A DNA stretch of 64,000 nucleotides from Candidatus Margulisiibacteriota bacterium (GCA_041650855.1 JBAZKJ010000001.1:551078-615077); one strand, 5' to 3'. Shown: positions 13,465 to 63,773, counted from the stretch's first letter. A program made the numbers and translations. The notes: a model not told the origin generated them from the letters alone.

Positions 13465-13491
13465 TTTAGAGTTTAGTATTTAGAGTTTAAT
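13464..13491 (+). repeat. tandem heptamer array (G/A)TTTAGA x4 immediately upstream of acpP SD
   Basis: GTTTAGA GTTTAGT ATTTAGA GTTTAAT. AT-rich island in a 62% GC genome. Confidence 0.7.
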
Positions 13492-13507
13492 AAGGAGGAG
13501 GTGGAAC

Positions 13508-13753: not shown

Positions 13754-13756
13754 AAC

Positions 13757-15954: not shown

Positions 15955-15963
15955 TGTTATAAT
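15955..15963 (+). promoter_or_regulatory. extended -10 TGtTATAAT 7 nt upstream of GTG start of the 1347-aa outer-membrane protein gene
   Basis: Immediately follows the fabF stop TGA (15952-15954). Same stop-TGnTATAAT-N7/11-GTG architecture as at yceD. Confidence 0.4.
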
Positions 15964-15970
15964 ACGGCGT

Positions 15971-43518: not shown

Positions 43519-44706
43519 TTAGTCAACCAGCGTCATCTTCACCTTGCCAAGCAGGCGATTGTCGTCCTTGGCCAGGATGGTGCCGACGTAGATGGCGTTG
43601 CCGGCCAGGTATCCCTGGTCGCTCCGGCCATCCCATTCAACCTTGTTGACGCCGGCCGAGCCGCCTTCGCTGCCGGCCAGGCAGTTCCAGCGCTTGATCC
43701 GCATGCCGCCGACGCCGATCAGGTAAATGTCGATATTGGCGTCGGTCGACAGGGTGTACTGGATGTAGACCTTCTTCTGCTTGGAGATGCTGAACGGCGA
43801 CGGATAGGTGATCGGCGTGCCGATCAGGCGGACCGGACCGCCCATCACTTCGACCGAGGCGATCTCGGTAGCGGTCGTCGCGGCGGCGATCAGGCCGCTG
43901 GAAGTGGCTTTGACCTTGAACGAATGCTCGCCTTCGCTGAGCGCTTCTTCAAAGGTGTATTTAACGGTCATGCTGCTAACTTTCCCTTCGTCGGCTCCCG
44001 TTCCCGCCGCGTAAACCGTGGAAGCGACGTTGGCGGCGGTCAGGGAGAGCGTCCTCGCGGTCGCCGTTCCCTCGTCGACAACGATCGAGTGCGATTCGAT
44101 GTTCCGGGCCAGGGTGAACGGGCTGTCCATCCCCATTTCCACCTTGATGTCCGGGGTGCTGGAAATAACGAACTTCTCTCCCTTGGCGACCAGCACTTTT
44201 TGGTAGAGGCGGTTGCCGAACCAGATCTTGATCCGCGGGGCCGGCTCGCCGCCGACTTCGGTCGTGACGACTATGGCCAGGCCCTTCCCTTTGGCCAGGA
44301 TCAGCGTCCCCGAGGCGAGGTCGAGCCCCGCGCCGGTGATCTTGACGCTGACCGGGTCTGATCCGTAGCCGTTGGCCGGGTCGCTCGGGTTGTCGTTGGG
44401 AATGGAAACATAGTATGTTTCGCCGACCGTCAGCGAGCTGAATTTAAGCCCGTAGGTATTTAACATATACTGCCCGGTGGCCTTGGCGACCCCGGCCAGC
44501 CCGATCTTATCGAAAGAGTATTTCCCGGCCATCGCTTCATCGGCTGTTTTGTAAAAAATGACGTAGCGCCCTTCCACCGTCTTGCCGTCTTCGGAATCCT
44601 GCGCTCCGCCCTTTACCCAATATTGCGGATAGAACGGCAGGGTGTACGCGACTACCGCCGCCGCCGCTATCAACGCTATTAACAGTCCGATGTAAGCTCT
44701 TTTCAT
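43519..44706 (-). CDS. secreted surface-operon protein: N-terminal CarboxypepD_reg-like (YWVKG) module, Ig-like middle, T9SS-type/FlgD-Ig-like C-terminal domain
   Basis: Signal peptide. PFYPQYWVKG ... VIFYK module shared with the genes at 46771 and 49493. C-terminal YPSPFS ... VEWDGRSDQGYLAGNAIYV ... KMTLVD. SD GGGAAGGAA. Confidence 0.8.
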   Translation of the reverse strand: MKRAYIGLLIALIAAAAVVAYTLPFYPQYWVKGGAQDSEDGKTVEGRYVIFYKTADEAMAGKYSFDKIGLAGVAKATGQYMLNTYGLKFSSLTVGETYYVSIPNDNPSDPANGYGSDPVSVKITGAGLDLASGTLILAKGKGLAIVVTTEVGGEPAPRIKIWFGNRLYQKVLVAKGEKFVISSTPDIKVEMGMDSPFTLARNIESHSIVVDEGTATARTLSLTAANVASTVYAAGTGADEGKVSSMTVKYTFEEALSEGEHSFKVKATSSGLIAAATTATEIASVEVMGGPVRLIGTPITYPSPFSISKQKKVYIQYTLSTDANIDIYLIGVGGMRIKRWNCLAGSEGGSAGVNKVEWDGRSDQGYLAGNAIYVGTILAKDDNRLLGKVKMTLVD

Positions 44707-44716
44707 TATTCCTTCC

Positions 44717-46750: not shown

Positions 46751-46770
46751 GTTCCTCTTGCTCCTCCTTT

Positions 46771-48225
46771 TTATGGCGTGACCGCCGGCACATAGCCGTG
46801 CGGGCCAGGATCGTTCAGTTCCAGGGCCAGGTTATTAAATGAACCGTACCACCAGCTCGTGTCGATGACGTCGACCAGGCCGTTCTGGTCCAGATCGGAC
46901 CGAATGAACGGATCGGCCGGGTCGTCCTCGCCGGTGGCGTTAAATCTGGTGAACAGGCGATACCAGTGCGAGGTATCGACCACGTCGATGTAATTGTTGC
47001 CGTCCATGTCGCCGGCCCGCAGCATCGTCCGGCCATTGGCCGTGACCAGCGCCGGCGGCTTGCCGGACGGCGCGTAGCAGGTTTCGTTATAAACTCTGGT
47101 CGCCGGGTCGTCGATCACCAGCGTATCGCCGGTCAATTCGAGGCGGGTCGTCGACGCCGCCGTATCCGCGCCGGTGTACAGCGTGATCTTCCGGCTGGTG
47201 ATCGCGGAAAGGTGCCCGATGCCGACCAGTGTCGGCGTTAACCACTGCTTGACCGCCAGGTAATAGTCGCCGTTGGGGAGCGGCGCGACGGCGCCGAACT
47301 CTGTCCCGTCCGGCTTCAGGAAGCCGTTCATCCCGGTCGTGTTGCCGCTCTGGTCGAGAATGACGTCGGCGTAACCGACGATCGTCGTCGCCGTATCGGG
47401 CGACACGCCGGACCGCGCTTCGATCCGGACATATTTCGGCGCCGCGTGGCTAAAGGTCGTCGCGTTGGCCAGCGCCTGGAAGAGAAGTGTCGGCTTGATC
47501 TGCGGCCCGTAAGCGATGATCTGGATCGCGTAAGTGACCGACAAGGTCAGGTTCGCTTCCACGAACTGGCCGGTGGCGTCGGTCACCCTGATCGTGATGT
47601 TATAGGTGCCGGCGGTCGACGGCGTTCCGCTGATCAAGCCGTTGGAAGTATTAAGCGTAATACCCGGCGGCAGGTCGCCCGAAGTAATCGACCAGGTCAG
47701 CGGGTCGGTCCCGCCTTCGGCGGAAACGATCGCGCTATACGGCTGGCCGACGGTCGCGTTCGGCAAGGCCGAGATCGTGATGTGGAGGCTGATCTCCGGA
47801 TCGGTCACCCCTTCGCCGGCCGCCAGCGCAAGCAAGTCGGCGGCCAGGTTCTTATAGCCGTTATTCAAGTCGGCCGTGCTGATAATGACATCTTTCTGGT
47901 TGACGCCGAATCCGCCCTTGTTGACCACCCCGATAAAGTAAGTCGTGGTCGACAAGGGAAGCATTCTCAGGTCGTCCATGGCGTTGATCTTGAACTGACC
48001 GTAAATATCGGTGGTCGCGTCGGCGTAAGCCGCGGCGGTATCGCCGGTCACTTTGTAGAATATGACCTTGAACCCGGAAAGGTCGGTTAAACCGCTGGCG
48101 CCGGCATTGACCACCCCGTTCACCCAGTAGGCGGCCGGGTACGGCGCCAGCTGCTGCGCGGCGAAAACGCTCCCCGCCAGCAGGGCCGCCGTGATCAATA
48201 TTGCCGTTAGTAACTTACGCGCCAT
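46771..48225 (-). CDS. secreted surface-operon protein: CarboxypepD_reg-like N-module, putative Ig domain, C-terminal type-I-like dockerin
   Basis: Signal peptide plus the PYPAAYWVNG ... KVIFYK module. PPGITLNTSNGLISGTPSTAGTYNITIRVTD Ig-like domain. C-terminal duplicated Ca-binding loops DMDGNNYIDVVD and DLDQNGLVDVID. Confidence 0.8.
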   Translation of the reverse strand: MARKLLTAILITAALLAGSVFAAQQLAPYPAAYWVNGVVNAGASGLTDLSGFKVIFYKVTGDTAAAYADATTDIYGQFKINAMDDLRMLPLSTTTYFIGVVNKGGFGVNQKDVIISTADLNNGYKNLAADLLALAAGEGVTDPEISLHITISALPNATVGQPYSAIVSAEGGTDPLTWSITSGDLPPGITLNTSNGLISGTPSTAGTYNITIRVTDATGQFVEANLTLSVTYAIQIIAYGPQIKPTLLFQALANATTFSHAAPKYVRIEARSGVSPDTATTIVGYADVILDQSGNTTGMNGFLKPDGTEFGAVAPLPNGDYYLAVKQWLTPTLVGIGHLSAITSRKITLYTGADTAASTTRLELTGDTLVIDDPATRVYNETCYAPSGKPPALVTANGRTMLRAGDMDGNNYIDVVDTSHWYRLFTRFNATGEDDPADPFIRSDLDQNGLVDVIDTSWWYGSFNNLALELNDPGPHGYVPAVTP

Positions 48226-48239
48226 GGTTCTCCTTCTGT

Positions 48240-49460
48240 TTATTTGTACCCGGTCAGCGTCATGGTAAAGGCGTCTTTGTCGACGCTAACTTGATACGGC
48301 CGGTCCTGGACGATCGAAGCCGCCAATATGTTCGCGACCGAATCTCCTGTGGCGACAGTCAGACCGGTATCGATCGCCGTTCCGGAGTAGCTGATCGCCG
48401 TCAGACCGACGTGCTTCTGGGTGTCGGCGTCGTACCAGCCGAACACTTTAACCGTTTGCTGCGCGGCCTTTTCGTTGATCTTTTCGATCAGCGCCTGGAC
48501 GGTCAGCGTTTTCGGCGCGCCGGTGGTTATTTCCGTCGTGCCATCCCAGATCCCGCTCGACGCGGTGAACGGAATAGAGAGCGTGTTGATGCCGGACGAC
48601 GGCCTCTTAAAGTACCAGGTAACGGGCACCAGGGTGGGACCGCCGGTCCCGCCGGTTAAAGTGGTCCACGCCGGATCGAGCGGAGCGCCGACCGTTGAGC
48701 CGAACCAGTTATAGGCCTTGGGGACAAATTGGTATGTTCCGGCAATGACCAGCGGGTCGGTGCTCGTGGAAAGGACCAGCGTGCCATTCGTGTATTTTGT
48801 CGCCGTCCCGCCCGCGCCCGGATAGGTCACATCTATTGAATATTTAGTCGTGCCTGGCGAAACCGCTGCAGTTTGGATCACTTTAGGCGTTGTTTCGCTG
48901 CAAACAACCGGGACTGTCAGCGTCAGAAACTGGTTCGTTGTGCTGCCGTCCCTTTGCGACGCTTCAACGACCGAGCCGATCGTCGGGGCGTTCGGCGCTT
49001 CTTCGAAATAATTTGCCGAAAAGTTCTTGAGCCACTGCATTGAAGAAGCGATGTTCGAGCCCAAGGCTAATGTTTGCGTCACGGTCTTATCGTCGCTATA
49101 ACCCTGCGTGCCGTACCCGTATTTCCCGCCGGCTTTGTATCTTACTGTAATATTGATCAAATTTTCGGCAAAATAGAACCGGTTAAACGCCGGCTTCCCT
49201 CCAGCCGCCGGGAGTTCATCGATCGTTCCATAAGGAACAAGCGGCGTCCCGTCCTGGTCGGGCGTCGGCAAGCTGGCGGAATTATAAAACTTCAACTCGC
49301 CTGCCAGATAAGCCGCTTTTGGGTCGCTGACCCCGGTGATGGTGCAGTCCGGCGAGCCGATGCTTTTTTCGATCTTAATATATCCTGACGCAAAGGCTGC
49401 TCCCGCCAGCAATAACACCAGCAGTGCAGTCAACCCTCCTTTGATATTGAAATTTTTCAT
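48240..49460 (-). CDS. secreted surface-operon protein with shared C-terminal module
   Basis: Start placed at MKNFNIKGG (SD GGAGGGAG 5 nt upstream). The MEGDNM start in the ORF track is a translation of the SD. C-terminal LIEKINEKAAQQTVKVFGWYD module. Confidence 0.75.
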   Translation of the reverse strand: MKNFNIKGGLTALLVLLLAGAAFASGYIKIEKSIGSPDCTITGVSDPKAAYLAGELKFYNSASLPTPDQDGTPLVPYGTIDELPAAGGKPAFNRFYFAENLINITVRYKAGGKYGYGTQGYSDDKTVTQTLALGSNIASSMQWLKNFSANYFEEAPNAPTIGSVVEASQRDGSTTNQFLTLTVPVVCSETTPKVIQTAAVSPGTTKYSIDVTYPGAGGTATKYTNGTLVLSTSTDPLVIAGTYQFVPKAYNWFGSTVGAPLDPAWTTLTGGTGGPTLVPVTWYFKRPSSGINTLSIPFTASSGIWDGTTEITTGAPKTLTVQALIEKINEKAAQQTVKVFGWYDADTQKHVGLTAISYSGTAIDTGLTVATGDSVANILAASIVQDRPYQVSVDKDAFTMTLTGYK

Positions 49461-49492
49461 ATTATCTCCCTCCATTAATTTATCACTACCTT

Positions 49493-51079
49493 CTAAGGCC
49501 TCGGCGCGTTCCAGTCGATTGGATCGGCATCCAGCTTGTGATAGTACCAGTATCCCTTCCCAATTTCGATCGGCGTATCAGCCCAGGCCGGATCGATCTT
49601 GGAAACAGGGATCAACCCGATTCCATCCCACTTTTGGATCACATCTTCATCTGTCGGGCCCGTGCCTAGCCCAAAGTTGTCAACAATATAATTGATCGGG
49701 TAAGGAGCCGCAATCAGGTTAAAGCTACCTCTGATCTGGCTGCTAAAGTCTGTGTTCTTGACCACTCCAACCATGCGCAATGCTCGCGGGTCTGCCCCAG
49801 TTCCGTCGGTTAATGGCCGGTAGACCCACAATCCCTTACCAAGCGTTATCTCGAAGGGCGGAGTTCCCCAGCCACCCGCCGTATCATTGTAGGAAGCCGG
49901 ATCCAACATCCAGTTGTTCGGATTAAAATCGGTCGTTTTCCATGACTGGATGATGCTTTCGTTCGGCAATTGTGCGCCAACAATATTAGGTATGCTTCCA
50001 TCAATGTGGTTGTTATCGGGCGAGCCGGACGGCGTCGTCGGGTAGAACGGCACGCCGACCAAGTTAAAGCCTTTGGCGAGATCCCATGTATACTTGACCG
50101 CGGTGATGGAGTTCTCCGAGTCTGCCATCCGGAGCGCCGGGTCGGAGGTGGTGACGACGCGGTAATACCGGATCGGCACGGCGGCGTCGGTGATGAGCTT
50201 AGATGTTACTCCGGCGACTTCCGAACCGAGGTTAACGCTGTAATCATCCGGGTTCGTAGAGAACGGCCCGCCGTCCTTGGCATAAATATGAATGGTATAT
50301 CCGGCCGGCGTATCGTAATCCCAGTGGAGGATCACGTTGCCGTTCGTCATCCTTTCGATCCAGGTCTTCCGGACCTTGCCGGTGTCGGCATTGCCGCCGA
50401 CGCTTAACCGGAAGCCGACCCAGGTAACGTTATTGGCGGTAACCGCCGCCGTCTTATTGACCGTGCCGTAGCTCGCCTTGGAACAGGCCAGCGCGTAAGA
50501 TCCCGGATCGAAATTGTCCAGCAAATAGGCGCCGCTGGTGTCGGAGGTATCGGAGGCGCCGGTATTGGCGATAATGGTCGCGCCCGCTACCACCGCCCCG
50601 ACTTCGTCGGTCACGATGCCGGCGATCTGGCCTTTGCCCGCCTGCGGCCCGCCGCCATTGATCAGCGTCAAGCCGGTAGTAATATAACCTTTGGACCAGT
50701 CAACCGTGCAGATCTCCGACGAACCGTAGTTGTTCGTAACGCCGCCCCAGTCCCTGACCACGGCGACGTTGAACACCGGCTTGCCGCCGATCTCCATATA
50801 GTTGTCGTCCTTGTGGTAAAAGAAGAGGTCATAGGCGTTAAAGTAGAACACGCCGCCGGTCCCCACTTCCGCCGTCACGACTTTGGTGCTGTCGAAAGTC
50901 GTGGCGTAAAGAATGACCGGGCGGCCGGCTAATTGGCCGCTCGGGTCGTTGACCGTCCCCTTGACCCAGTAGAACGGCATGGTGCCGGCTTGCGGCGCCG
51001 GCCAAACTGCCGCCGCGGCGCCGGCGAATATCGCCAGTCCGAGCAGCAGCAGTGTCAGTATCTTGATCCGTTTAAACAA
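49493..51079 (-). CDS. secreted surface-operon protein: CarboxypepD_reg-like N-module (x2) and shared C-terminal module
   Basis: TTG start with SD AAAGGGGAA. MPFYWVKGTVNDPSGQLAGRPVILY N-module. Second CarboxypepD_reg-like segment AGATIIANTGASDTSDTSGAYLLDNFDPGSY. C-terminal IEIGKGYWYY. Confidence 0.75.
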   Translation of the reverse strand: MFKRIKILTLLLLGLAIFAGAAAAVWPAPQAGTMPFYWVKGTVNDPSGQLAGRPVILYATTFDSTKVVTAEVGTGGVFYFNAYDLFFYHKDDNYMEIGGKPVFNVAVVRDWGGVTNNYGSSEICTVDWSKGYITTGLTLINGGGPQAGKGQIAGIVTDEVGAVVAGATIIANTGASDTSDTSGAYLLDNFDPGSYALACSKASYGTVNKTAAVTANNVTWVGFRLSVGGNADTGKVRKTWIERMTNGNVILHWDYDTPAGYTIHIYAKDGGPFSTNPDDYSVNLGSEVAGVTSKLITDAAVPIRYYRVVTTSDPALRMADSENSITAVKYTWDLAKGFNLVGVPFYPTTPSGSPDNNHIDGSIPNIVGAQLPNESIIQSWKTTDFNPNNWMLDPASYNDTAGGWGTPPFEITLGKGLWVYRPLTDGTGADPRALRMVGVVKNTDFSSQIRGSFNLIAAPYPINYIVDNFGLGTGPTDEDVIQKWDGIGLIPVSKIDPAWADTPIEIGKGYWYYHKLDADPIDWNAPRP

Positions 51080-51100
51080 AAATTTCCCCTTTGTTATCGC

Positions 51101-52393
51101 CTATTGGCTATTCTTTAAAACGAACTCGATCTTGGCCGGCGGCGCCGTGACCCCGTCCGCGTTGACCGTGCCGATATAGAACTGCGCGCCCATCCCCTCT
51201 TTAAGCGGCGAGGCCTTCAATGCCGCCGCAGCCGAAGAAGCGTCCGGATCGTTCAATGGCAGCAGTACATAGCTCGGCGTCTGGGTCGTTGCCAGCCAGC
51301 TGCCGACCGTGGAAACAACCTTATTCCCGGCCGCAGTGTTAATGACCTTGACCAGGTCGTAAGCCATTTTGACTTCATTTGTCGTGCTGCCGTCATAATT
51401 GGTAAAGTTGAGCGCCGCGCCCAGTTTATCGTACGCGAACCACGGCCCCGGCGACGGCATAGCGATAAAGTTCATCCCCGCGCCGAGCGGTGCCTGCGAT
51501 TCCAGCGTGATAACGTACGTGCCGGAGCCCGCGCCGCCGAACTTCGTGGTGAACGTGTAGGTGTTCGGGGCCGCGCTCGGACCGAACGCGTTCCAGCCGG
51601 TGGTCAGCAGGGTGTAGGTCGTTCCCGCCGTGAGCGCCAGGTTGTCCGGGGCCGCGGCGATCCGGCCGATCAGCTTGGTCGCCGGCGTGCTCGCGTGCGG
51701 CAGGGCGGAGAAACCGACCACTTCCAGCGACATGCCGCTGTAGGAATAATTGGTGTCATAGCCGAGCGTCAGGAACGCTTCACCCATGCTGACGTTCACC
51801 TGGTTAACAACGCCGCCGGTCGAATTGGTCACGGTCGGGGCCGGCGGTGCGCCTGCCGTCTTTTCGGTCCCGCCCAGGGTCCAGCTGGCGCCGACAATCA
51901 GGCCGAACGCGGTCGCGTCGGCCGGGACGGAATACGCCGTCAGGATCGAGTATCTGATAGTGCTCCAAACCACGGGGACGATCTTTTTGCCCAGCACCAG
52001 GTTATCTATGTCAACGTCGAGCCCGCTGCCAAAGTTGACGCTGGTCGTTGGCCCGGTCATGACCTTCAGGTTCGTCCCGTCATATTGGCAAGTAAAGGAG
52101 ATCGCCGGCGAATAGACGGTCGTGCCGACCTTGGCCAGTTTCGGCACCGTAATGTCGGTGGAGATCGCCGTGCCGTCGATCATCGGCTTGATGAAGCCGG
52201 CAATGATGTCGCTTTCGCCCCAGCCGGCCGGCACTTGCAGTACTATGATGTCCCGGTTTTGCAGAGCCGTCGTTAAAGAGAGCGATCCCTGTCTGAGCTG
52301 CATCGACATGCTTTCCGCGTTGGCGACGGAGCATAACAAGATCAAGCTTAAGGCCAGCAACCCACCTTTCACCAAAAATTTACTTACTCTCAT
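51101..52393 (-). CDS. secreted surface-operon protein with shared C-terminal module
   Basis: Signal peptide (MRVSKFLVKGGLLALSLILLCSVANA). SD AAGGGGGAA. C-terminal LVKVINTAAGNKVVSTVGSW ... GMGAQFYIG. Confidence 0.75.
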   Translation of the reverse strand: MRVSKFLVKGGLLALSLILLCSVANAESMSMQLRQGSLSLTTALQNRDIIVLQVPAGWGESDIIAGFIKPMIDGTAISTDITVPKLAKVGTTVYSPAISFTCQYDGTNLKVMTGPTTSVNFGSGLDVDIDNLVLGKKIVPVVWSTIRYSILTAYSVPADATAFGLIVGASWTLGGTEKTAGAPPAPTVTNSTGGVVNQVNVSMGEAFLTLGYDTNYSYSGMSLEVVGFSALPHASTPATKLIGRIAAAPDNLALTAGTTYTLLTTGWNAFGPSAAPNTYTFTTKFGGAGSGTYVITLESQAPLGAGMNFIAMPSPGPWFAYDKLGAALNFTNYDGSTTNEVKMAYDLVKVINTAAGNKVVSTVGSWLATTQTPSYVLLPLNDPDASSAAAALKASPLKEGMGAQFYIGTVNADGVTAPPAKIEFVLKNSQ

Positions 52394-52420
52394 CTTATTC
52401 CCCCTTTTACTTTGTGCGCC

Positions 52421-53644
52421 TTATTCGGCAAGGCTCATTGATTGATAACTCAAACCGGCCGCGTTCAAGCCCCAGCTAAAAGCCGTGACCGAAGCGGGAT
52501 TATTCGATTGATAGAAGTAGCCCCTGCCGCCCTTAAAATCAAGGACCGGCGGAGAAAGCGTCCAGGTGATCGCTGCTCCCGAGACAACCGCCTTTGCCTT
52601 ATCGTATGTCGGATTAGCCGCTGACGTTTTCTTGAAGACCGTGTCGTTGTTAGACGCGAAGTTAAATAAATTTGCCCCTTCGCCGTCCGGGATCGCCCTG
52701 GGAACCGCCATGGAAACGATCGCGAAGCCGCCATTCCCATAGATCCTCGAGGAACCCACCAACTGGACGCTGCCGAGCAGTGTTAACATCTTCGATGCGC
52801 TGGTCTTGACAAAACATCCTGTTCCGGCCGGGATGGTGAGCGAGAACGGATCGCTCCAGGCGGAACCGTTGTATATCGCTTTGTCGTAAGTCGGATTGCC
52901 GGAGGTCTTTTTAAAGATCATGTCTTGGTCCGACCAGTTCGCGATAAAATCGCTGACCAGATGACCTTCGCCTTTTACTAAATGGACGCCCACCAAATTG
53001 AAGCCGCTGGAAAGCTGGATATTGATCTTGCCGACCGCTTCCGCGCTCGGTATGTAGTAGCTGTATTGTGTCGACGGGATCGTCGACCAAAGAGCCTTAT
53101 AATAAACTTCACCCGTCCCCATTTTCACCTGGTTTTGGTGAACTAATTTATTATCCGCATAGGTGAATGTTCCATATCCATCCGGCGTTGGAGAGACCAA
53201 CGCGCCGCCGGAGGCGATCAGCTTCCATTTGGCCGCCGAATAGTCGTTTAAATATTCACCGGCGCCGTTGCCTATTAACGCGAAGATCTGCGGGTTATCT
53301 GTCGTTTCCCAAGTTATTTCGACGTTATTGCCGTTGGCGGATATGTATAATTTATAAGTCCCATCCGCGGCAATTCCCTGGTCGTCCAGCAAGCCCAGGA
53401 TCCCGGGAGTGATCCGGATCAGGCCGGTATCGTTCTGGAAATTAGCGCCTGCCGGCTCGCCGAATGTCTGGTAAAGCTTGATCGTCGCGTTCGCTTCTTT
53501 GGTCCCGCCGCCGTTGGCCGTGTCATACAGCGTGATCTGGGGGTCCGCGTTTATCAGCTTATCCGCGTACACCACGCCGCCGATGGCCAACACCATGGCC
53601 GCGACCAGCGAGATCCTAATTACTAAATTCGAAACTCTAAACAA
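52421..53644 (-). CDS. secreted surface-operon protein with internal duplicated FKKTS..PTYDKA module
   Basis: TTG start with SD AAGGGGAG. Signal peptide. Two repeats of the form D..(I/V)FKKTS(G/A)NPTYDKA. C-terminal GRGYFYQ. Confidence 0.75.
   Translation of the reverse strand: MFRVSNLVIRISLVAAMVLAIGGVVYADKLINADPQITLYDTANGGGTKEANATIKLYQTFGEPAGANFQNDTGLIRITPGILGLLDDQGIAADGTYKLYISANGNNVEITWETTDNPQIFALIGNGAGEYLNDYSAAKWKLIASGGALVSPTPDGYGTFTYADNKLVHQNQVKMGTGEVYYKALWSTIPSTQYSYYIPSAEAVGKINIQLSSGFNLVGVHLVKGEGHLVSDFIANWSDQDMIFKKTSGNPTYDKAIYNGSAWSDPFSLTIPAGTGCFVKTSASKMLTLLGSVQLVGSSRIYGNGGFAIVSMAVPRAIPDGEGANLFNFASNNDTVFKKTSAANPTYDKAKAVVSGAAITWTLSPPVLDFKGGRGYFYQSNNPASVTAFSWGLNAAGLSYQSMSLAE
53615..53642 (+). 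repeat. tandem heptamer array (CCTAATT ACTAAAT TCGAAAC TCTAAAC) overlapping the TTG start of surface-operon gene 52421-53644
   Basis: Reads GTTTAGAGTTTCGAATTTAGT in gene orientation and encodes F-R-V-S-N-L. Confidence 0.5.
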
Positions 53645-53656
53645 ATGCTTCTCCCC

Positions 53657-56335
53657 TTACTTCGCCGACTTGTCCTCCAGCGCTTTGATCCGCGCCTTCA
53701 GCGCTTCGTTCTCCGCTTTCAATTCCTTGATCGCTTCGACAAAGAGGGCGCTAAAGCCATTGTAGTTGACCGCTTTATAGCCGTCCGGCCCTTCGCTGAC
53801 CAACTCCGGCGCCACCTTCTCAATCTCCTGAGCGATCAACCCGAGCTGGGTCGTCCCCGGCAATCCTTTGGCCCCCGCATCCTTCCACTTATAGCTTACG
53901 CCTTGCAGTGCAGCAACCCTATTAAGCGAGCCGGAGAGCGGCGCTATGTCACTCTTAAGCCGCATATCTGAGAAGACAATGCCAACTGTTGAGTAACTAT
54001 ACTTACCGATCGACGTACCGTAAGTTATTTCGTCAGCTGTTAGTAACGGCGCTTTCATCCGACCAGTATTGTTATTAATCTGATAAGCGGCCTTCCAACC
54101 ACTCGAGCCCCTTACCCCCAACGCCGTTGTTGCCGGATAGTTCACCGTGGCAGGGAAATGCGCGAAAAGCGCCGAGTAGGTTGTGCCTGCCGTGTTATCA
54201 GCGATCCAGATCCCCGGAGCTTGCCCGCCGTTCGTCTCCGGCAAAAGAACAAGGTTTTTCTTGGTCCCGACCGCAAGGTCGTTGATATATTGCGTCTTGA
54301 AAACGTTGTTGGTAAGCCTAGCGTCGGCGATTGTGCCGGTCGTGATATTGGCCGCGTTAAGGCTGGTCAGGTTCGCTCCGCTGATAGCCGGAAGCGCCCC
54401 GGTTAACTTCGACGCGGTAATGCCGCTAGCGATCTTCGCATCGGTAACCGCGCTGGCCGCTATATCGGCCGTGGCAATGGTGTTCCTTTGCGCGATCGTT
54501 CCCAATCCAGCCGAAGCTTGCAGTTTGGTGAATGTCAGGTCGAAGTCTGACGCCACTTTGTGCCACGAACCGCCTACCACGTTCTGGTAGAGACCGGCAC
54601 CGTAGCTGCCTGATGGTGCGGTCAGATTAAAGAATGAACCGAGTGAGTAGTTCCCGGTGTAGCCCGTGCCTGCTGACGGTAAGGCCGTCCCGCTGGGCGC
54701 GACTTGCGAGAACGACAGCAATCCCGATACTTTTGACGCCGGCACGGCGGAGACGTTGCTTAAGTCGGTCTTCGCGTAACCGTCCAGAGCAACCGTGGTC
54801 AGGAAGTCGCCGCTCAAGTTTTGGACCTTGCTCATGTTCGTTGCCAATTTTTGCAGGCTTGATCCCGCCTTCAGCCGGTAAGTTGTGGTAACGCCGCTTT
54901 TGCTCGTATAGGTCCAATCCGACGCCGCGTTGCCGCTCATCCCCATCACGTGTTCTGCCAGCGCAACCCGGTCCTCAACGTCCGACCCTACCGGGTCGCC
55001 AGGGTCGGTTACCGGGCCTGCCGGATCGATCTTCTCAACCGATTGCATAAATTCCGGCAACTCAATTTTGAAGCTCCCTTTGGTGACCCAAATCTTGACA
55101 TCCCCTTCAGCGCTGGAGCTGACTTGGTCGACCACTCTGACCGGGACATTAACAACCGTGGCCCCCGTCGACGGGACCATGGTCGTGAAAACGATCTGGC
55201 CGGTCGTTGGGCCAAATATAACGTCCGAAACCGCTACCGTGATCGGGGGTAAAGGTAAATAACCACCGTCGGGCACGTGATACGCCGTTACAGTTCCCCG
55301 AAGATTCCAGAGGTAGTCGGGGACCCCTCCGCTGGCCTGCATCGTTACAGAAAAATCAGCTATCCCGGCCGAGGCTTTCATGACGTTTATAATCTTGTGT
55401 AAAGTGACCGGCTGCTTTTTAACCATGATGTTTCTTTCTTCGACAGCAACCTGGTTATAAAAATCTTTCATCCTAACCGTCAATTTTCTCCAGCCTTCTG
55501 TGGCGGTAAGCGCTACAGAGCCATTTAGCTGCGCCCTTTGCGTTGCCGTGGGGCCGGTACTAACCGTCAACGCCGACGGATTGATCCCCGTAACAGCCGG
55601 CTCGATTGAAACCGTCCAGGTAAAGGTCGGTGTCCCGGCGCCGGCTTTTCGTTCAAATACGCCTGACCAAGGTTTTCCAATATAGAAATAATCAGCGGGG
55701 TCGGTACTAATGGTAAACGCCGGAGAAGAAGTTACTCCCGTTATCGCTCCCTGGACGTTCATGTTCCCCCGGACCAGCAAGTCGCCGTTAATGTCACATT
55801 CGTAACCCGTTGTCACTTCCGGGGTCATGACGCCGACGCCGACGTTCGTGACCCGCAGCTTACTAAGGTCGCTGTAGCCCTGGATATCCAGGCCGTTGCC
55901 GGCGCCAACGCCGGTGCCGCCGGTCCTGATCCTGGCGACGTCATTCCACCAACCCAGGCTGACGCTCGCATTGTCGTTGTTGGGATTTCTGCTGATCACA
56001 TGTCCCGCTGTTATCGCGTAGGGAGCAGCAGTTAATGCCTGGCCCGGTAAAGCAGTGCCGTTCACTTCGACGGTAACTACGGCGTATTCGGGGAGCAATA
56101 ACGCGGTCTTTGACCCCAACTGGACGCTGAAAAAACCTTTTTCATCGATGTTAAGTTCGGTCGCGGTGTAGCTTTCCGACCAGCTGTTGATCCTGAACAC
56201 GACGGTTTGGCTGCCGGTCGGCGCCCCTTTCTTGAAGACCCCCTGGAAGTTTATTTTTTGCGGGACCGCCCAGCCCGGACTCGCCACCACCAGCGCCACA
56301 AAAAGGACCACGACCGCCATCATTAATTTTTTCAT
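53657..56335 (-). CDS. tail-fibre-like trimeric surface protein with C-terminal peptidase-S74 intramolecular chaperone domain
   Basis: 892 aa with signal peptide. Repetitive beta-helix/fibre-like middle. C-terminal 104 aa SDMRLKSDIAPLSG ... VSYKWKD ... GLIAQEIEKVAPELV ... IKELKAENEALKARIKALE matches the endosialidase chaperone domain. Confidence 0.85.
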   Translation of the reverse strand: MKKLMMAVVVLFVALVVASPGWAVPQKINFQGVFKKGAPTGSQTVVFRINSWSESYTATELNIDEKGFFSVQLGSKTALLLPEYAVVTVEVNGTALPGQALTAAPYAITAGHVISRNPNNDNASVSLGWWNDVARIRTGGTGVGAGNGLDIQGYSDLSKLRVTNVGVGVMTPEVTTGYECDINGDLLVRGNMNVQGAITGVTSSPAFTISTDPADYFYIGKPWSGVFERKAGAGTPTFTWTVSIEPAVTGINPSALTVSTGPTATQRAQLNGSVALTATEGWRKLTVRMKDFYNQVAVEERNIMVKKQPVTLHKIINVMKASAGIADFSVTMQASGGVPDYLWNLRGTVTAYHVPDGGYLPLPPITVAVSDVIFGPTTGQIVFTTMVPSTGATVVNVPVRVVDQVSSSAEGDVKIWVTKGSFKIELPEFMQSVEKIDPAGPVTDPGDPVGSDVEDRVALAEHVMGMSGNAASDWTYTSKSGVTTTYRLKAGSSLQKLATNMSKVQNLSGDFLTTVALDGYAKTDLSNVSAVPASKVSGLLSFSQVAPSGTALPSAGTGYTGNYSLGSFFNLTAPSGSYGAGLYQNVVGGSWHKVASDFDLTFTKLQASAGLGTIAQRNTIATADIAASAVTDAKIASGITASKLTGALPAISGANLTSLNAANITTGTIADARLTNNVFKTQYINDLAVGTKKNLVLLPETNGGQAPGIWIADNTAGTTYSALFAHFPATVNYPATTALGVRGSSGWKAAYQINNNTGRMKAPLLTADEITYGTSIGKYSYSTVGIVFSDMRLKSDIAPLSGSLNRVAALQGVSYKWKDAGAKGLPGTTQLGLIAQEIEKVAPELVSEGPDGYKAVNYNGFSALFVEAIKELKAENEALKARIKALEDKSAK

Positions 56336-56360
56336 TTTATTTCCTCCTAATCGACTTTTC

Positions 56361-58265
56361 TTAGTATGTGTCCCAGTTCAAGAGGTCTTTCTTCAAGACC
56401 TGCTGCACGTAATCGGTGCGATAGAGCATCTCCACCGTTTCCGCTCTGGTCAATTGCTTGTTCGGCTCAAAGTTCAGCCCTTTCAGATACTGCAAGATAT
56501 TAACTTTATTGCTCCCGGCGATGATCTTGGCCGCCCAGTGGTTGCCGGCGACGTCCGGGAAGTCGCGGGCGTAGGTCTCTTCGCTGACGCCGGCAAAGCG
56601 GGCGATCATTGCCAGCCCTTCGGCGCGGGTGATCTTGCCGTTCGGTTTAAAGACGTTGCCGGGGTAGCCCTTGACGACGCCGAGCGCCGCCGCTTCCGCG
56701 ACGAACGCGCTGGCCCAGTGCTTCCCGGGGACGTCCTTGAACGCCGCCGCCGTTAACGCCGCCTCTGCCGTCGACGCGTTCTGTTTCCTGGTCTTCATCA
56801 GTAGTGAGCACATTTCGGCGCGGGAAATGCCGCCCTCCGGCTTGAACGTGCCGTCGGGATAACCGGTGATGATGTTCTGCATCGCCAGGAGCGAGATCGG
56901 CTTGTCAACCCAGTAGCCGATGACAACGTCCGGGAAGGTCGTTAAGCGGAGCAGGCGGACCTTGGACGAGCCGACCAGCTTGCCCCGGTCGTCGCTGCCG
57001 GCCAGGATGATGCCGTTCTTGCCGATCTTCAGTTCCACCTCGGTCGAGATGTCCCCCTTCAGGTTCATCTTGACCGGCTGGCCGTTGATCGTGGCGGTGC
57101 GGATCCGGCTGTTCGCCGCGTGCGCGTGGACCCGCGTCGCGCCGGCAAACGTGATCGTCTTGTCATCGGGCGAAGTAAAGGTGAATGGGTCCTTGCTGCT
57201 CTCAACGGCCGGCGGCAGGTAGTTGTAAGAGAGCGAGAAGAAATGGTTGTCGATATTCGGCGCGCCGGCGAAAGCGTGGTAGGCGTAGTCGAACCGGAAC
57301 CCGCCGAAATACATGCCGACGCCGTAAGTCGGATCGGAATAAGTCGTCAGGCCGCCGTTGCCGTCGCCGCCGGCATCCTGGTCGATACCGGCCCGGATCG
57401 CCAGGATCGAGACCGGCTTCCATTCCGCGCCCAAATGCATGACCGGCGGATACCCGGCCAGCGAAGGATGGAGGTCGATGTCGGTCATGATCTTGAGCTC
57501 GTGGTCCCCGTATTTCGCCAGCGCTTTATCTTTGCCGAGCACGGAAAAGGCGGCGCCGGTCTCGATCACCGCCGGGTACGATTCTTCGTGGCCGCCGGAG
57601 TATGTCAGTTTGCCGCCCAGGCCGGCGGGGAGAGCGTTTTGCACCGCCATACCGAGCGCTAGCCAGCGCAGCGGCGTGTATTTGATGCCGAAGTCGAGCT
57701 CCTGGCCGGAGGCGTCGCCGTTCTGGATCCCGTCGCCGTAGAGGCGCGCCCGGAATAATTTAACACTGGTGCCGAGCGTGATCTTGTCCGCTTGCGGGAC
57801 CTGTTTGACGTAAGGGATCTTGTCCGCTTTGTTGCCGTAAGAGAAGACCATGGCGGCGTTGTCGTTCCCCATGGTCGGCTGGCTCGGGTCGATCGTGTAG
57901 ATCGGATCGGCCGGGTCGGACCCCGCTTCGATCGTGGTGGCGAACGCCCCGGCGATCGAGGTCCCGGCGTAACCAAAACCGAAAACGCCGTACTCGGTCG
58001 GATATAAGCCGGAAAAAGAGAGATAGCTGTATTCGTCGAGGAATTTACCGGACATAGAAGACAATTGCCACCCGGAAACGTCGCCCATGCCGGCCGGGTT
58101 GGTGTACATCGCGCCGGTATCGTCGGCCAGGGCGATATACGCTTTACCAAGCCCCAGGACGCGGCCGTTCGGTACGTATCTCGTCGGGTCTTGCGCGACA
58201 TACTGGGCGCAGGCAACGCCCGCCAGTAAAACGGCGGCCACTATGGCGGTTAATATTCGTTTCAT
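56361..58265 (-). CDS. outer-membrane FadL/OmpP1/PorV-like beta-barrel with three C-terminal SLH domains
   Basis: Signal peptide. N-terminus LGLGKAYIALADDTGAMYTNPAGM matches the FadL signature ([25 protein letters not shown]). Three C-terminal SLH repeats (GYPDGTFKPEGGISRAE, GYPGNVFKPNGKITRAE, ... NKQLTRAE). Confidence 0.8.
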   Translation of the reverse strand: MKRILTAIVAAVLLAGVACAQYVAQDPTRYVPNGRVLGLGKAYIALADDTGAMYTNPAGMGDVSGWQLSSMSGKFLDEYSYLSFSGLYPTEYGVFGFGYAGTSIAGAFATTIEAGSDPADPIYTIDPSQPTMGNDNAAMVFSYGNKADKIPYVKQVPQADKITLGTSVKLFRARLYGDGIQNGDASGQELDFGIKYTPLRWLALGMAVQNALPAGLGGKLTYSGGHEESYPAVIETGAAFSVLGKDKALAKYGDHELKIMTDIDLHPSLAGYPPVMHLGAEWKPVSILAIRAGIDQDAGGDGNGGLTTYSDPTYGVGMYFGGFRFDYAYHAFAGAPNIDNHFFSLSYNYLPPAVESSKDPFTFTSPDDKTITFAGATRVHAHAANSRIRTATINGQPVKMNLKGDISTEVELKIGKNGIILAGSDDRGKLVGSSKVRLLRLTTFPDVVIGYWVDKPISLLAMQNIITGYPDGTFKPEGGISRAEMCSLLMKTRKQNASTAEAALTAAAFKDVPGKHWASAFVAEAAALGVVKGYPGNVFKPNGKITRAEGLAMIARFAGVSEETYARDFPDVAGNHWAAKIIAGSNKVNILQYLKGLNFEPNKQLTRAETVEMLYRTDYVQQVLKKDLLNWDTY

Positions 58266-58271
58266 TCTTGT

Positions 58272-60236
58272 TTATCTAACGGCTGCCGGCTTGATCATGA
58301 TCCGGTTCTCGACGATCTTCTTGTTCTTTTCGTCAAAAACCAGCAAGGTGTAAAGTCCCGACGTCAGATAGGGGGCCATTTTCGCCCTTTCGATCACAAA
58401 GTCGACTTTGTTCGTCGCCGGCGGATTGAACGTGAAGGTTTCTTCCCACATCTTGCGGCCATAGCCGTCGCTCAGCACCGCTTTGAGGTAGCTGATCTGC
58501 ACACCCTTGGGAAGACGGATAAAGGCGGGCATGGCCCCTTTGGTTTCCGGGTCCCAGGTCTTTTCTTTCATGCCGCCGTAACCGATGGCGCCGTTCCCCG
58601 CCCCGGTCGCCGGGACGATCGCCCCGGTCTCGCCCGTGCTGGGGACAGCCACCCGGACCAGGAGATATTGCTGGCGGTTGTTGCCGGCCGCGTCTTCGGT
58701 ATAAATGATCAGGGCCGCGTCCTTGCCGCCGGCGGTAGTCGGCAGGCTGAACTGATACCCGGCCTCAATGCTGACCGGCGAAATAAGGCTGACCGAGCTT
58801 TCCGGAATGAGATAGTCATAGCTGGCTCCATCCAGATTAATAATGAACCTGACGATCTTGGTCATATTATTGCTGGAAGTAGCCTCGATCGTCATGATGT
58901 CGTTGCGGCTGATCGTAGTCCGCGGGGTAACGACGCTCCCTTCCGTGGTCGGCGGCAGGTAAACGCTGCGGGAAGCGCCGGCGCCGAACCAAACCCGGGG
59001 GATCTGGACCGTCGCCCCGTTGGCGGCTACCACCAGCGCCCCGGTTTCCGTGGAAACGGTCGCGTCGCCGTTGGTGACCGTAACATCCCAGGCCCCGGTG
59101 GTTACCTCCGGAGTGGTTATTATATATGTAAGAAGCCGGCTGTCCGATTCATAGCTGGAATAGAGCACGGTTATGCCGCTTTTCCCTGTCGCCTCAAAGG
59201 TCGCGTAGGCGCCGGCAATAAACCCGCTGCCGACAACCTCCACCGTCCCCATCCAGCCCGATTTGATCGAACTTGGGGTTACTCCGGTGATCCGGGGAGA
59301 TTCCAGCTTGTAAATGTTCCCGCCGGCACCGGCCAGGAAGGCAAAAACCGAGATATTTGGGCTGGTTCCGACCGTTTTGACCGAAATATCCCTAATATCG
59401 GCGGCGGGCGTCAGGGCATAAGTGGTCCAGCTTAAGGCGCCGTCCGCGGTCAGTGCGACCGTGCCGGCATCCCCGACCACCCAACCAAAGCCTTCTGTGA
59501 CAAAATAAAGGGAATTAAGGTTCGCGACCAAGCCGGCGGAGATCTCGCTCCAATTTGCCCCGCCGTCGAGCGATTTCAAGACCAACCCGGAGGCGCCGAC
59601 CGCGTAGCCGACCGAAGCACTTGCCAGCATCACGTCCCTGACCGCGCCGGTGCCGGTCCAGACCTCCGTCCCATTACGGATAATAGCGTAATTGACCGAG
59701 TCTTTCCTTTGGCCCCAAACGAAGATGTCCCCGGCCTCGCTTATATAAGCGCCCTGGATATTCAGATTGCTTTGCAGTTCGGGAGTCCAGTTTGCGCCGC
59801 TATCGGTCGATCGATACAGGTAGCTGTCGCCGGATGAGCCGTTGGAGGCGGCGATCGCCCGGGCCGCGCCGCTGAAGCCGATCTTGAGCAGGTTTGCCGT
59901 GCCGACCCCGGCGAGCGCGACGGGAGAGAACGTTTCGCCGTCATCGAGCGACTTGAGCAGGGTGCCGGACGCGCCGGCGGCATAGAGCTCGCCGGCTGCC
60001 GGGGCAGCCACGTCATATAATGTTTGCGCCGTACCGGTAACTTTTGCTTCCCAGGTGACGCCGCTGTTGCCGGTCTTTAAAAAGGTCCCGTTATTGCCGA
60101 CGGAGAAGCCGATGGCCGAAGCGGGGAAATAACAAGCCTGGAGATCTTGAGTGGTCGTTGACTCTTGCGTTACCCATCCCGCCCACGCGAGGGGAGCAAG
60201 CAGAGCCACGATGAAAAAACTTTTCATCAGCCGCAT
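58272..60236 (-). CDS. secreted Ycf48/BNR-like beta-propeller protein with Ig-like domains; first gene of surface operon
   Basis: Signal peptide MRLMKSFFIVALLAPLAWA. The GTG 60258 in the ORF track lies inside the promoter. Ycf48-like repeats (GNNGTFLKTGNSGVTW, ... SLDGGANW, ... TADGALSW). C-terminal beta-sandwich possibly CTD-like. Confidence 0.75.
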   Translation of the reverse strand: MRLMKSFFIVALLAPLAWAGWVTQESTTTQDLQACYFPASAIGFSVGNNGTFLKTGNSGVTWEAKVTGTAQTLYDVAAPAAGELYAAGASGTLLKSLDDGETFSPVALAGVGTANLLKIGFSGAARAIAASNGSSGDSYLYRSTDSGANWTPELQSNLNIQGAYISEAGDIFVWGQRKDSVNYAIIRNGTEVWTGTGAVRDVMLASASVGYAVGASGLVLKSLDGGANWSEISAGLVANLNSLYFVTEGFGWVVGDAGTVALTADGALSWTTYALTPAADIRDISVKTVGTSPNISVFAFLAGAGGNIYKLESPRITGVTPSSIKSGWMGTVEVVGSGFIAGAYATFEATGKSGITVLYSSYESDSRLLTYIITTPEVTTGAWDVTVTNGDATVSTETGALVVAANGATVQIPRVWFGAGASRSVYLPPTTEGSVVTPRTTISRNDIMTIEATSSNNMTKIVRFIINLDGASYDYLIPESSVSLISPVSIEAGYQFSLPTTAGGKDAALIIYTEDAAGNNRQQYLLVRVAVPSTGETGAIVPATGAGNGAIGYGGMKEKTWDPETKGAMPAFIRLPKGVQISYLKAVLSDGYGRKMWEETFTFNPPATNKVDFVIERAKMAPYLTSGLYTLLVFDEKNKKIVENRIMIKPAAVR

Positions 60237-60245
60237 TACCGCATA

Positions 60246-60274
60246 ATAATAGCACACCACACAACAATGTGCAA
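60246..60274 (-). promoter_or_regulatory. candidate promoter TTGCAC-17-TATTAT for the 20-kb minus-strand surface operon
   Basis: Read on the minus strand. The -10 lies 9 nt from the ATG of MRLMKSFF. Confidence 0.35.
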
Positions 60275-62465: not shown

Positions 62466-63773
62466 ATTATCAGGAGGGGGTCGCTCGCGCTGCTTGCGCT
62501 CGCGCTATTCCTTGCCGGCGCGGGAAACGCGGTCTATTTTAGCGGCAGCACCGGCGCCCGGCCGTTAGCCCTGGGCAACGGCTACGTCGGCCTGGCCGAC
62601 GACGCCGCCTCGCTCTTTGCCAATCCCGCCGGCCTGGCTTCCCTCGGCCGCCCCGCCGTGACCAGCATGTATTCCCAGCCGGATGCCGATACGACTTTTT
62701 CCTCGCTCGGCGGCGGCTTGCCGTTTTTCGGCGGCTTTCTCGGCATTGGCTACCGCGCGCAAACCGTGGCCGGCGTTCAGGTCTCGACCGAAGTTTTCAG
62801 CTTCACCGACCAGGACATCATGTTCGCTTACTCGCGCCAGCTGGGAGAGCAGCTTTCGTTCGGCCTCGATTACCGCCTTCTCGCCAAAGGCCCTTCCCGC
62901 GCCTATCCCGGCTCGGACGGGGCCACCGCCAACGGCAGTTCGGCGGACTTTTCCCTGAAATATAATTACCAGCCGAATTTTTCTCTCGGCCTGGTCTGGC
63001 GCGAGATCGGCGGCCGTTTTAATTACCAGAACGGCGCCGTCGAGAACTTCCCGACCAATGTTACCGTTGGCGGCGCTTACCGTTGGCGGCCGGACCTGAC
63101 CTATACCCTTGACGTCAACAAGGAAAACGGCCAACCTCTCCTGCTCCATTCCGGACTGGAATGGTCGCCGGCCTCGCTGATCTCGCTCCGCTTCGGCGTT
63201 GACCAGACCGCCGCCGGCGCTTCCGCCCATTCCAACATTACCTCCGGCCTCGGCATCCACCTGGGCGGTTTTGCCATCGATTACGCGCTTTACAGCTGGA
63301 AGGACCAATCCCGCGCTTCGATCCACTATTTCTCCATCAGTTACGCGCCGCCCGCCAAGAAAGCGGCCGTCCCCGTAACTTATTATCCGACGCCGGAACC
63401 GACCCCCGAGGTCAAGATCCCGCGCATCAGCTTCCCCGACCTGCCGGCCAAGCACTGGGGGAAGAACGAGATCGAGCAACTCGCGACCGCCGGCGTCATC
63501 TGGGGATATCCCGACGGGACGTTCCAGCCGAACAAAAAATTGACGCGCGCCGAATTCGCGGCGATCGTGGCCGCCGCCAAGCACCTGGAACCGGCGCCGG
63601 TCGACAACGCCAACAAGCTAATCACCCGGGGAGAAGCCGCCAAATTGCTCGACCTGACCGAGCCCGTTTCCCGCGCCAAAGCCCCTCTCACCCGGGCGGA
63701 AGCGGCACTGATGATCTACCAGACCCCGTTCGGCCAGGCCGCGATCAAGCGTTTGCCGCCGCTCGCCGACTGA
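62466..63773 (+). CDS. second FadL/PorV-like outer-membrane barrel with C-terminal SLH domain; probable ATT (or ATC) start
   Basis: The ORF track starts at GTG 62658 but the frame is open back to 62442. The upstream frame encodes a perfect signal peptide IIRRGSLALLALALFLAGAGNA plus the FadL motif LALGNGYVGLADDAASLFANPAGL. SD AAGGAGGG lies 6 nt before ATT 62466. Confidence 0.6.
   Translation: MIRRGSLALLALALFLAGAGNAVYFSGSTGARPLALGNGYVGLADDAASLFANPAGLASLGRPAVTSMYSQPDADTTFSSLGGGLPFFGGFLGIGYRAQTVAGVQVSTEVFSFTDQDIMFAYSRQLGEQLSFGLDYRLLAKGPSRAYPGSDGATANGSSADFSLKYNYQPNFSLGLVWREIGGRFNYQNGAVENFPTNVTVGGAYRWRPDLTYTLDVNKENGQPLLLHSGLEWSPASLISLRFGVDQTAAGASAHSNITSGLGIHLGGFAIDYALYSWKDQSRASIHYFSISYAPPAKKAAVPVTYYPTPEPTPEVKIPRISFPDLPAKHWGKNEIEQLATAGVIWGYPDGTFQPNKKLTRAEFAAIVAAAKHLEPAPVDNANKLITRGEAAKLLDLTEPVSRAKAPLTRAEAALMIYQTPFGQAAIKRLPPLAD

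Follow-up and report, generated by a model that had tools for sequence, protein, structure and literature searches.

A 64,000-nt stretch of the chromosome of a Candidatus Margulisiibacteriota bacterium (the window, within which all coordinates are counted) carries a gene for an 892-amino-acid (aa) protein, here called the fibre, that ends in a Peptidase S74 (S74) intramolecular chaperone domain. Margulisiibacteriota are an uncultured sister lineage of Cyanobacteria. We consider it probable that the protein is a Sec-exported, trimeric surface fibre or adhesin owned by the cell, a diderm Margulisbacterium, and not part of a virion. Domain content, motif conservation, the non-phage context, synteny, purifying selection and mosaic divergence were observed directly and form the basis of this reading.

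The fibre ends in a Peptidase S74 chaperone domain

The Pfam model PF13884 (Peptidase_S74, 'chaperone of endosialidase') matches aa 789–846 of the fibre over profile positions 1–57 of 58, with an E-value of 6.8e-16 and a score of 58.7 bits against the Pfam cut-off of 22 bits. A preliminary description of this DNA, made from its sequence, had assigned the C-terminal 104 aa to the S74 chaperone and proposed a profile search with PF13884 as the check; the clear match obtained, together with the presence of the Ser/Lys dyad, bears this assignment out, and the coordinates given there (53660–53975) are correct to within 4 nt, the gene lying on the minus strand. The final 104 aa are encoded by 53660–53971, with the codon for Ser789 at 53969–53971, and the C-terminus reads ...GIVF|SDMRLKSDIAPLS...VSYKWKD...GLIAQEIEKVAPELV...KELKAENEALKARIKALEDKSAK, where the last segment, KELKAENEALKARIKALEDKSAK, is heptad-like. 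Ser789 and Lys794 are invariant in an alignment of eight sequences. More widely, the SDxxxK motif is present in 140 of the 157 proteins retrieved, at a median of 110 residues before the C-terminus (104 aa in the fibre).

Structural comparisons are consistent with the same assignment. A sequence search of the PDB returned the tip of the long tail fibre gp37 of phage S16 (6f45) and the tail fibre 8jov, both with S-D-x-R-x-K aligned; with a profile built from the eight sequences these matches improved to E 8e-20 and 1e-13, respectively, and the MyRF ICA structure 7dc3 was added at E 3e-9. An AlphaFold2 (AF2) monomer model of aa 471–892 was confident in the S74 part alone (predicted local distance difference test, pLDDT, of ~67–90) and contains a long terminal helix at aa 858–890 (pLDDT ~85–90). 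When this S74 model was searched with Foldseek, the best match was MyRF ICA 7dc3 (probability 1.0, E 5e-6, template-modelling score on the target of 0.60), followed by a weaker match to the EndoNF chaperone 3gw6 (E 0.018, probability 0.75). The presence of the domain is thus confirmed far beyond chance, and, because every defining feature that could be tested is present, the fibre is a bona fide S74-domain protein. The behaviour of such domains has been described for EndoNF (Schulz 2010) and T5 pb1 (Garcia-Doval 2015), here taken from their citation in PMC10769870; from the likeness in sequence, the fibre is predicted to trimerise and to cleave itself in the same manner.

Domain layout of the fibre

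The gene and its product are divided as follows.

53657..56335, minus strand: whole fibre gene, an intact open reading frame (ORF) for an 892-aa precursor of 93.3 kDa
56267..56335, minus strand: signal peptide, aa 1–23 (MKKLMMAVVVLFVALVVASPGWA, then VPQ), of the signal peptidase I type, without a lipobox Cys
56015..56266, minus strand: N-domain, aa 24–107, proposed cell-proximal anchor, motif xPxxIxYQG...W.E...G.FSV.LG...V.V.G..L...L.SVPYA
55766..56014, minus strand: 'NPNN...SLGWWNDVARIRTGGTGVGAGNGLDIQG' module and degenerate VGVGxxTP turn, aa 108–190, end of the conserved proximal block
54536..55765, minus strand: variable middle, aa 191–600, beta-rich and specific to a small family
53972..54535, minus strand: phage-like distal shaft and tip, aa 601–788, with PHROG and phage-record matches
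53660..53971, minus strand: Peptidase S74 / C-terminal intramolecular chaperone domain, aa 789–892, predicted released fragment of 11.1 kDa
53954..53971, minus strand: predicted catalytic motif S789-D-M-R-L-K794; the scissile bond would be F788|S789

The ORF starts with ATG, directly preceded by an AGGAGG ribosome-binding site, and an identical protein, from a 951-kb contig, is listed by NCBI as 'MAG: tail fiber domain-containing protein [Candidatus Margulisiibacteriota bacterium]'. Both the signal peptide and its predicted cleavage site were assigned by reading the sequence; the signal peptide is 100% conserved in the orthologue from the related metagenomic genome L001 and nearly identical in two paralogues, P0006 and P0008. 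The N-domain, for which neither a Pfam match nor a PDB sequence homologue was found, aligns with the N-termini of 23 other secreted S74 proteins. Of the 133 nearest relatives with the S74 motif, 45 contain the N-domain motif, and 35 of these 45 also have a signal-peptide-like start.

The NPNN module (NPNN...SLGW.NDVARIR.GG.G.G..NGLDIQG) directly follows the N-domain, is 97% identical to its counterpart in L001, and recurs, often in tandem, in the secreted proteins P0003, P0015, P0019, P0029, P0074 and P0119. Three of these (P0015, P0019 and P0029) are short secreted proteins with tandem 'NPNN...ARLRIGG.G.G..NGFEIQG' modules and a C-terminal domain (...PDYVFE..Y.L..L.EVE......HLP..PSA......G..L.....LLQKIEELTLY.I...) that, in its second half, is similar to the helix region of S74, although SDxxxK is missing. 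This domain may be a non-cleaving cousin of the chaperone; neither it nor the NPNN module of these proteins has a Pfam model. Further along the fibre, aa 191–600 may include Ig-like domains. The distal shaft repeats occupy aa 616–690 (DIAASAVTDAKIASGITASKL...) and the tip aa 691–788, the end that autocleavage would expose.

Phage-like sequence is confined to the distal part. With the whole fibre as query, tblastn matched 1101 phage records; the 25 matches listed, some of them to long fibres of cyanophages and to L-shaped fibres of Klebsiella phages, all fall within aa 604–889. Likewise, 24 PHROG families match the fibre, most of them tail-fibre families, and several of these alignments reach back to aa 495–661. 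The same search with aa 24–600 against 50,697 phage records gave no match at E <= 0.01, and a typical N-domain member gave no match in the phage genome collection. Judged by these alignments, with PHROG matches starting at aa 495–661, only the C-terminal third of the fibre is phage-like.

The gene lies in a run of genes for secreted envelope proteins

The fibre gene is part of a tight minus-strand gene run, with gaps of ~12–26 nt on either side of it, and the products from 43519 to 60260 all start with signal-peptide-like segments, as read from the sequence. The main members of the run, besides the fibre gene, are the following.

58272..60260, minus strand: first gene of the conserved run, a 662-aa BNR/Ycf48-like beta-propeller with a signal peptide (Pfam PSII_BNR, BNR)
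56361..58265, minus strand: upstream neighbour, a 634-aa protein with a PorV/PorQ-like barrel (aa 32–349), a Glucodextran_B-like domain and three SLH domains (aa 443–618)
52421..53644, minus strand: downstream neighbour, a 407-aa secreted protein with an internal 'FKKTSxNPTYDKA' repeat
39494–43423, minus strand: run-ending 1309-aa subtilase with FG-GAP repeats and fn3 (Pfam)

The barrel/SLH protein is matched by Pfam SLH at 108 bits and, in the PDB, by the Sap SLH domains and the SLH proteins 8bym and 8bys. NCBIfam PorV_fam scores 57.7 bits, under its cut-off of 90, yet the match covers profile positions 11–326 of 326. The protein is always found directly upstream of the fibre gene and is 98% identical in L001 and 78% in L015, a second related metagenomic genome. 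It is the most conserved gene of the operon; its order, with SLH at the C-terminus, reverses that of canonical OmpM, in which SLH is N-terminal and the barrel C-terminal, and a second barrel/SLH copy, likewise with C-terminal SLH, lies near the window end (62658–63773, plus strand). In Margulisbacteria, which are diderm Terrabacteria, SLH and barrel (OmpM) proteins tether the outer membrane (bioRxiv 10.1101/2021.05.31.446380), and for this reason the neighbour is a plausible candidate for an outer-membrane/peptidoglycan anchor of the fibre.

The 407-aa downstream protein has no match in Pfam, PHROG, NCBIfam or the PDB; its gene is syntenic in L001 (77% identity) and in L015 (45% over the N-terminal part). 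Beyond it the run continues with proteins of 430, 528 (CarboxypepD_reg), 411, 484 (He_PIG), 677 and 395 aa. The 1309-aa subtilase, as called, has no signal-peptide-like start, so its true start may differ. Its C-terminus carries an Asp/Thr-rich repeat (DTDTIDDTDT...) and a terminal segment that may serve as a sorting or anchoring signal. A weak partial match to an anammox S-layer glycoprotein family was also found in the operon, and a promoter/terminator scan of the operon returned counts at the level of shuffled sequence.

The rest of the window is ordinary chromosome, with metK, a TMEM260-like glycosyltransferase, plsX-fabH-fabD-fabG, an acyl-CoA dehydrogenase with electron transfer flavoprotein, tuf, lpxC, fabZ/lpxA, lpxB, an AsmA-like protein and two S8 subtilases. 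The PHROG search of the other tested ORFs of the window gave nothing phage-specific, its matches being to SLH (the barrel/SLH protein) and a marginal one of unknown function (31606–32676). The sole 'Phage_integrase' match, at 5182–6057, comes from a XerC/D-type recombinase of 291 aa encoded among fatty-acid genes at a distance of 48 kb, and the two tRNAs are both >22 kb from the fibre gene. Just past the window edge lie further SLH and DUF1565 genes. The preliminary description had placed the protein in a cellular surface-protein operon with no other phage genes nearby. Both points hold: the neighbours are signal-peptide-like proteins with SLH, BNR, He_PIG and CarboxypepD_reg domains, and no other phage gene, structural genes included, was found in the window or just past its edge. 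At third codon positions the GC content (GC3) of the fibre gene is 0.66, in a window range of 0.59–0.87; recent foreign acquisition, as judged by base composition, was dropped because this value lies within that range.

Relatives and synteny of the operon

A HMMER search of 1.84 billion representative sequences returned >50,000 clusters at E <= 1e-3, 11,209 at E <= 1e-10 and 12 at E <= 1e-30, a collapse which indicates that the S74 module is extremely common and the full-length protein rare. A single full-length relative was found (P0002, 67–72% identity); its 8-kb contig carries the same neighbouring genes. In the paralogues P0006 and P0008 the signal peptide and the S74 domain are nearly identical to those of the fibre, but the middles differ; the two are tandem genes at the equivalent operon position on a 187-kb contig (L015), where the two S74 fibres occupy 10001–12820 and 12839–15493 (939 and 884 aa), and they are also present in L016 and L017. 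Scans of genomes and metagenomes with the family alignment gave only unrelated S74 loci (L002–L012).

The order propeller, barrel/SLH, S74 fibre and further secreted proteins is kept in L001 and in L015/L016, and the propeller gene is syntenic in both L001 and L015. Gene-by-gene BLAST against L015 gave 78% identity for the barrel/SLH protein, 51% for the propeller and 28–46% for the downstream genes. Because the operon position is kept across this wide divergence, the fibre appears to have been inherited as a cellular gene and not as a prophage relic.

One of the proteins retrieved, P0005 (1106 aa, Bacteroidota-like), has two S74-like segments (SDKMFK... and SDASIK...) followed by the type IX C-terminal sorting domain PF18962, and is thus a cell-owned S74 protein routed via a known outer-membrane secretion system.

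Conserved ends enclose an exchangeable shaft and tip

The ratio of nonsynonymous to synonymous substitution rates (dN/dS) between the fibre and its L001 orthologue is 0.25 overall and 0.06–0.45 in every segment, values that indicate purifying selection on a functional gene. Amino acid identity and synonymous divergence (dS), given here for the window against the L001 genome, vary strongly along the locus.

Flanking propeller gene: 96% identity, dS 0.25
Flanking barrel/SLH gene: 98% identity, dS 0.21
Fibre aa 1–200: 93–100% identity, dS 0.13–0.32
Fibre aa 201–600: 69–74% identity, dS 0.75–1.3
Fibre repeat shaft, aa 601–690: 49% identity, with indels relative to the orthologue
Fibre tip, aa 691–788: 29% identity, with indels, dS saturated
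Fibre S74 domain: 83% identity, dS 0.87
Downstream 407-aa gene: 77% identity, dS 0.65

At the DNA level, 150-nt windows are 91–99% identical to L001 from ~60450 to ~55810, with two windows at 87%; identity drops sharply at ~55810 (aa ~175) and is 29–49% across 54462–53957. The tandem paralogues of L015 share two DNA blocks alone, the first ~70 nt (83%) and 267 nt of the S74 domain (95.5%), a finding suggestive of gene conversion at the two ends, the middles being unrelated. P0001, P0002, P0006 and P0008, taken as a set, share conserved ends and have middles that are unrelated. Taken at the level of sequence, this pattern points to a shaft and tip that form a variable cassette between conserved 'handles' (signal peptide and N-block on one side, S74 on the other), diversified by recombination. 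Phage fibre/adhesin and fibre/chaperone gene pairs are swapped together. The 407-aa downstream gene has diverged like the distal fibre and may be swapped along with the tip.

A proposed route from precursor to surface fibre

In the mechanism we propose, Sec would export the 93-kDa precursor and signal peptidase I would cut past Ala23. The S74 domain would then bring three chains into register and nucleate folding of the distal shaft and tip, proceeding from the C-terminus towards the N-terminus. After formation of the trimer, Ser789, activated by Lys794, would cleave the F788|S789 bond, freeing an 11.1-kDa chaperone fragment per chain and leaving a kinetically stable fibre of 79.8 kDa per chain (aa 24–788), whose newly exposed C-terminal tip would be the distal binding end. 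The N-block (aa 24 to ~175) would keep the fibre on the envelope, possibly via the PorV-like barrel/SLH protein encoded directly upstream, and the exchangeable distal shaft and tip would diversify binding specificity or antigenicity.

Several points weigh against this account of the fibre. Export, trimerisation, cleavage, surface display, the adhesin role and the anchoring partner are all predictions, and anchoring by the N-domain, with its link to the barrel/SLH protein, is proposed from conservation and adjacency. A folded trimer would have to cross the diderm outer membrane, and no ligand could be predicted for the tip. Moreover, the AF2 monomers of the shaft and of the N-terminal half were unusable (mean pLDDT of 39 and 43 for the two halves), a low quality attributable to shallow alignments and to the modelling of an obligate trimer as a monomer. 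Phage and PHROG fibres align to aa ~495–788, where the AF2 monomer has a pLDDT of ~30 and the fold is unassignable, so that a triple-beta-helix or fibre fold upstream of S74 is suggested solely through that homology.

Comparison with known S74 proteins and adhesins

The closest described system is that of the mosaic adhesive trimer (MAT) fibres of Bdellovibrio bacteriovorus, in particular their S74 subgroup, e.g. Bd3182 (Caulton et al., Nat Microbiol 2024; PMC10769870). Members of the MAT family have a signal peptide, an invariant beta-rich domain of ~130 aa at the N-terminus, presumed to attach to the cell surface, and a trimeric ~1000-aa fibre; 13 of the 21 carry an SDxxxK S74 domain, and tips are swapped between them (PMC10769870). 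The substitution S782A in Bd3182 blocks cleavage, which identifies SDxxxK as catalytic (PMC10769870). The Margulisiibacteriota fibre resembles them in being chromosomal and non-phage, in its signal peptide, conserved N-block, size class (~900–1000 aa), C-terminal S74 SDxxxK motif and mosaic tip swapping, and by analogy it may work like an S74-type MAT. The two differ in the host phylum, here Margulisiibacteriota and not a predator as far as is known, and in the place of the gene, which in the present case is fixed within a conserved envelope operon beside a barrel/SLH protein. Furthermore, the MAT capping-loop motif V-G-G/N-pi-x-x-P-x-x-x-L was absent from the fibre and three close relatives when sought with a regular expression; the fibre holds only a degenerate VGVGVMTPEV at aa ~167, and the motif may not be obligatory. 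Between the fibre tip and the MAT tips with structures in the PDB, no sequence similarity was detected.

Phage fibres with such chaperones (K1F endosialidase 3GW6, T5 pb1 4UW8 and S16 gp37 6F45) share with the fibre the Ser-Lys dyad ~100 aa before the C-terminus, the terminal helix and a homologous distal shaft and tip, aa ~604–788 matching L-shaped and long tail fibre genes. Unlike them, the fibre has a signal peptide and a 577-aa non-phage N-part, and lacks a virion-attachment domain and phage neighbours. The ICA of MYRF (7DC3), the best structural match, is a cellular, non-viral use of the self-cleaving trimerisation module; however, MYRF is a eukaryotic membrane-bound transcription factor whose cleavage frees an N-terminal DNA-binding trimer and not a fibre. 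Trimeric autotransporter adhesins (YadA/UspA1) are likewise trimeric, modular and mosaic adhesive surface fibres of diderms, but their polarity is opposite, trimerisation of the fibre being driven, on the present model, by the cleavable S74 domain. The fibre was ruled out as a trimeric autotransporter, since Pfam finds no C-terminal YadA-type membrane-anchor barrel and S74 is its sole match.

Cell-owned, phage-type self-cleaving S74 fibres would thereby extend from Bdellovibrio (and, in animals, MYRF) to Margulisiibacteriota, with a design common in secreted bacterial proteins, in which the shaft and tip are exchangeable and the parts on either side, the signal peptide with the N-block and the chaperone, are conserved. 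For annotation, the name 'tail fiber domain-containing protein' need not mean a prophage. The novelty is small, because the domain is already annotated on the protein, cell-owned S74 fibres have been published and the architecture is widespread, and no question is opened beyond those that the MAT work had raised. What is added is the context of a conserved envelope operon, together with the tandem paralogues and a recombination boundary that is sharp; the locus is a clean natural example of a tip swap between near-identical genomes, with a candidate anchor partner adjoining.

Alternative explanations

S74 is classically a phage domain, the C-terminal third of the fibre matches 1101 phage records and 24 PHROG families (mostly tail-fibre), and its GC3 of 0.66 sits low in the window range. 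An orphan tail-fibre gene left by a decayed integrated phage, with no cellular role, is nevertheless scarcely credible and already largely refuted: no other phage family lies within the 64 kb or just past the edge and no tRNA or integrase is nearby, the gene has a signal peptide and a 577-aa N-terminal part that is absent from 50,697 phage genomes, the gene holds the same operon position in three genomes whose flanking genes range from 98% down to 51–78% identity, and dN/dS is 0.06–0.45 across all segments. The preliminary description had called the protein a likely domesticated fibre or adhesin; domestication implies a transfer from phage to cell, a direction beyond what the data establish. 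Equally hard to credit is a fibre belonging to a tailocin or extracellular contractile injection system whose remaining genes lie elsewhere in the genome. Tail fibres of the latter systems can reportedly carry S74 domains, but genes for a sheath, tube or baseplate are absent from the window, phage tails lack the N-domain, and such particles assemble in the cytoplasm, whereas the fibre and the operon products from 43519 to 60260 start with signal-peptide-like segments.

Among readings in which the protein stays with the envelope, the least improbable alternative, though still unlikely, is a structural part (an S-layer-like coat, spacer or scaffold) with no specific external ligand and hence no adhesin role. 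It would fit an operon with many SLH, beta-helix and Ig-like proteins, a weak partial match to an anammox S-layer glycoprotein family, and a most conserved neighbour that resembles the OmpM outer-membrane tether. Fast replacement of the tip between near-identical genomes and tandem paralogues with different middles are, however, typical of ligand-binding or antigenic ends and not of lattice proteins, and in the L-shaped fibres and long tail fibres of phages the region homologous to the tip is the receptor-binding end. We give little weight to the idea that S74 is kept as an uncleaved folding or oligomerisation module, perhaps doubling as an export or recognition tag. The homogenised S74 DNA of the tandem paralogues (95.5% identical) and the similar helix-rich ends of P0015, P0019 and P0029, which have no Ser/Lys motif, speak for it; against it, the fibre retains the Ser789/Lys794 dyad as well as the conserved Asp and Arg, which match proven self-cleaving members (PMC10769870), and a loss of activity is not to be expected. 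A more elaborate proposal, which we rate as rather improbable, is that the operon constitutes an undescribed, dedicated fibre-display system of Margulisbacteria, in the order BNR propeller, barrel/SLH protein, S74 fibre (one gene or two), some eight secreted proteins that lack annotation and the S8/FG-GAP protease. In such a system the barrel/SLH protein may act in the outer membrane to export or anchor the fibre as its partner, the homogenised S74 may double as a recognition tag, formally like the type IX C-terminal domain that is handed to PorV, and the distal fibre and the 407-aa gene may form one cassette whose exchange would serve antigenic variation or the recognition of partners. The cell-owned, self-cleaving surface fibre remains the reading we prefer.

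Other loci in the window

Two further regions are recorded here. At 14023–20014, a series of four ORFs on the minus strand (665, 485, 246 and 523 aa) overlaps an ORF of 1347 aa on the plus strand (15971–20014); the ORFs of this region, on both strands, have zero Pfam or PHROG matches, and they adjoin an S8 subtilase gene at 20011–22224. On the plus strand, a 427-aa ORF at 37111–38394 is an apparent fusion of FabZ (FabA-like domain) and LpxA (hexapeptide repeats and Acetyltransf_11). The listed LpxB ORF (37881–39497, plus strand) overlaps it by ~500 nt and, given this overlap and an LpxB profile match that starts at aa 173, the real lpxB start probably lies further downstream.

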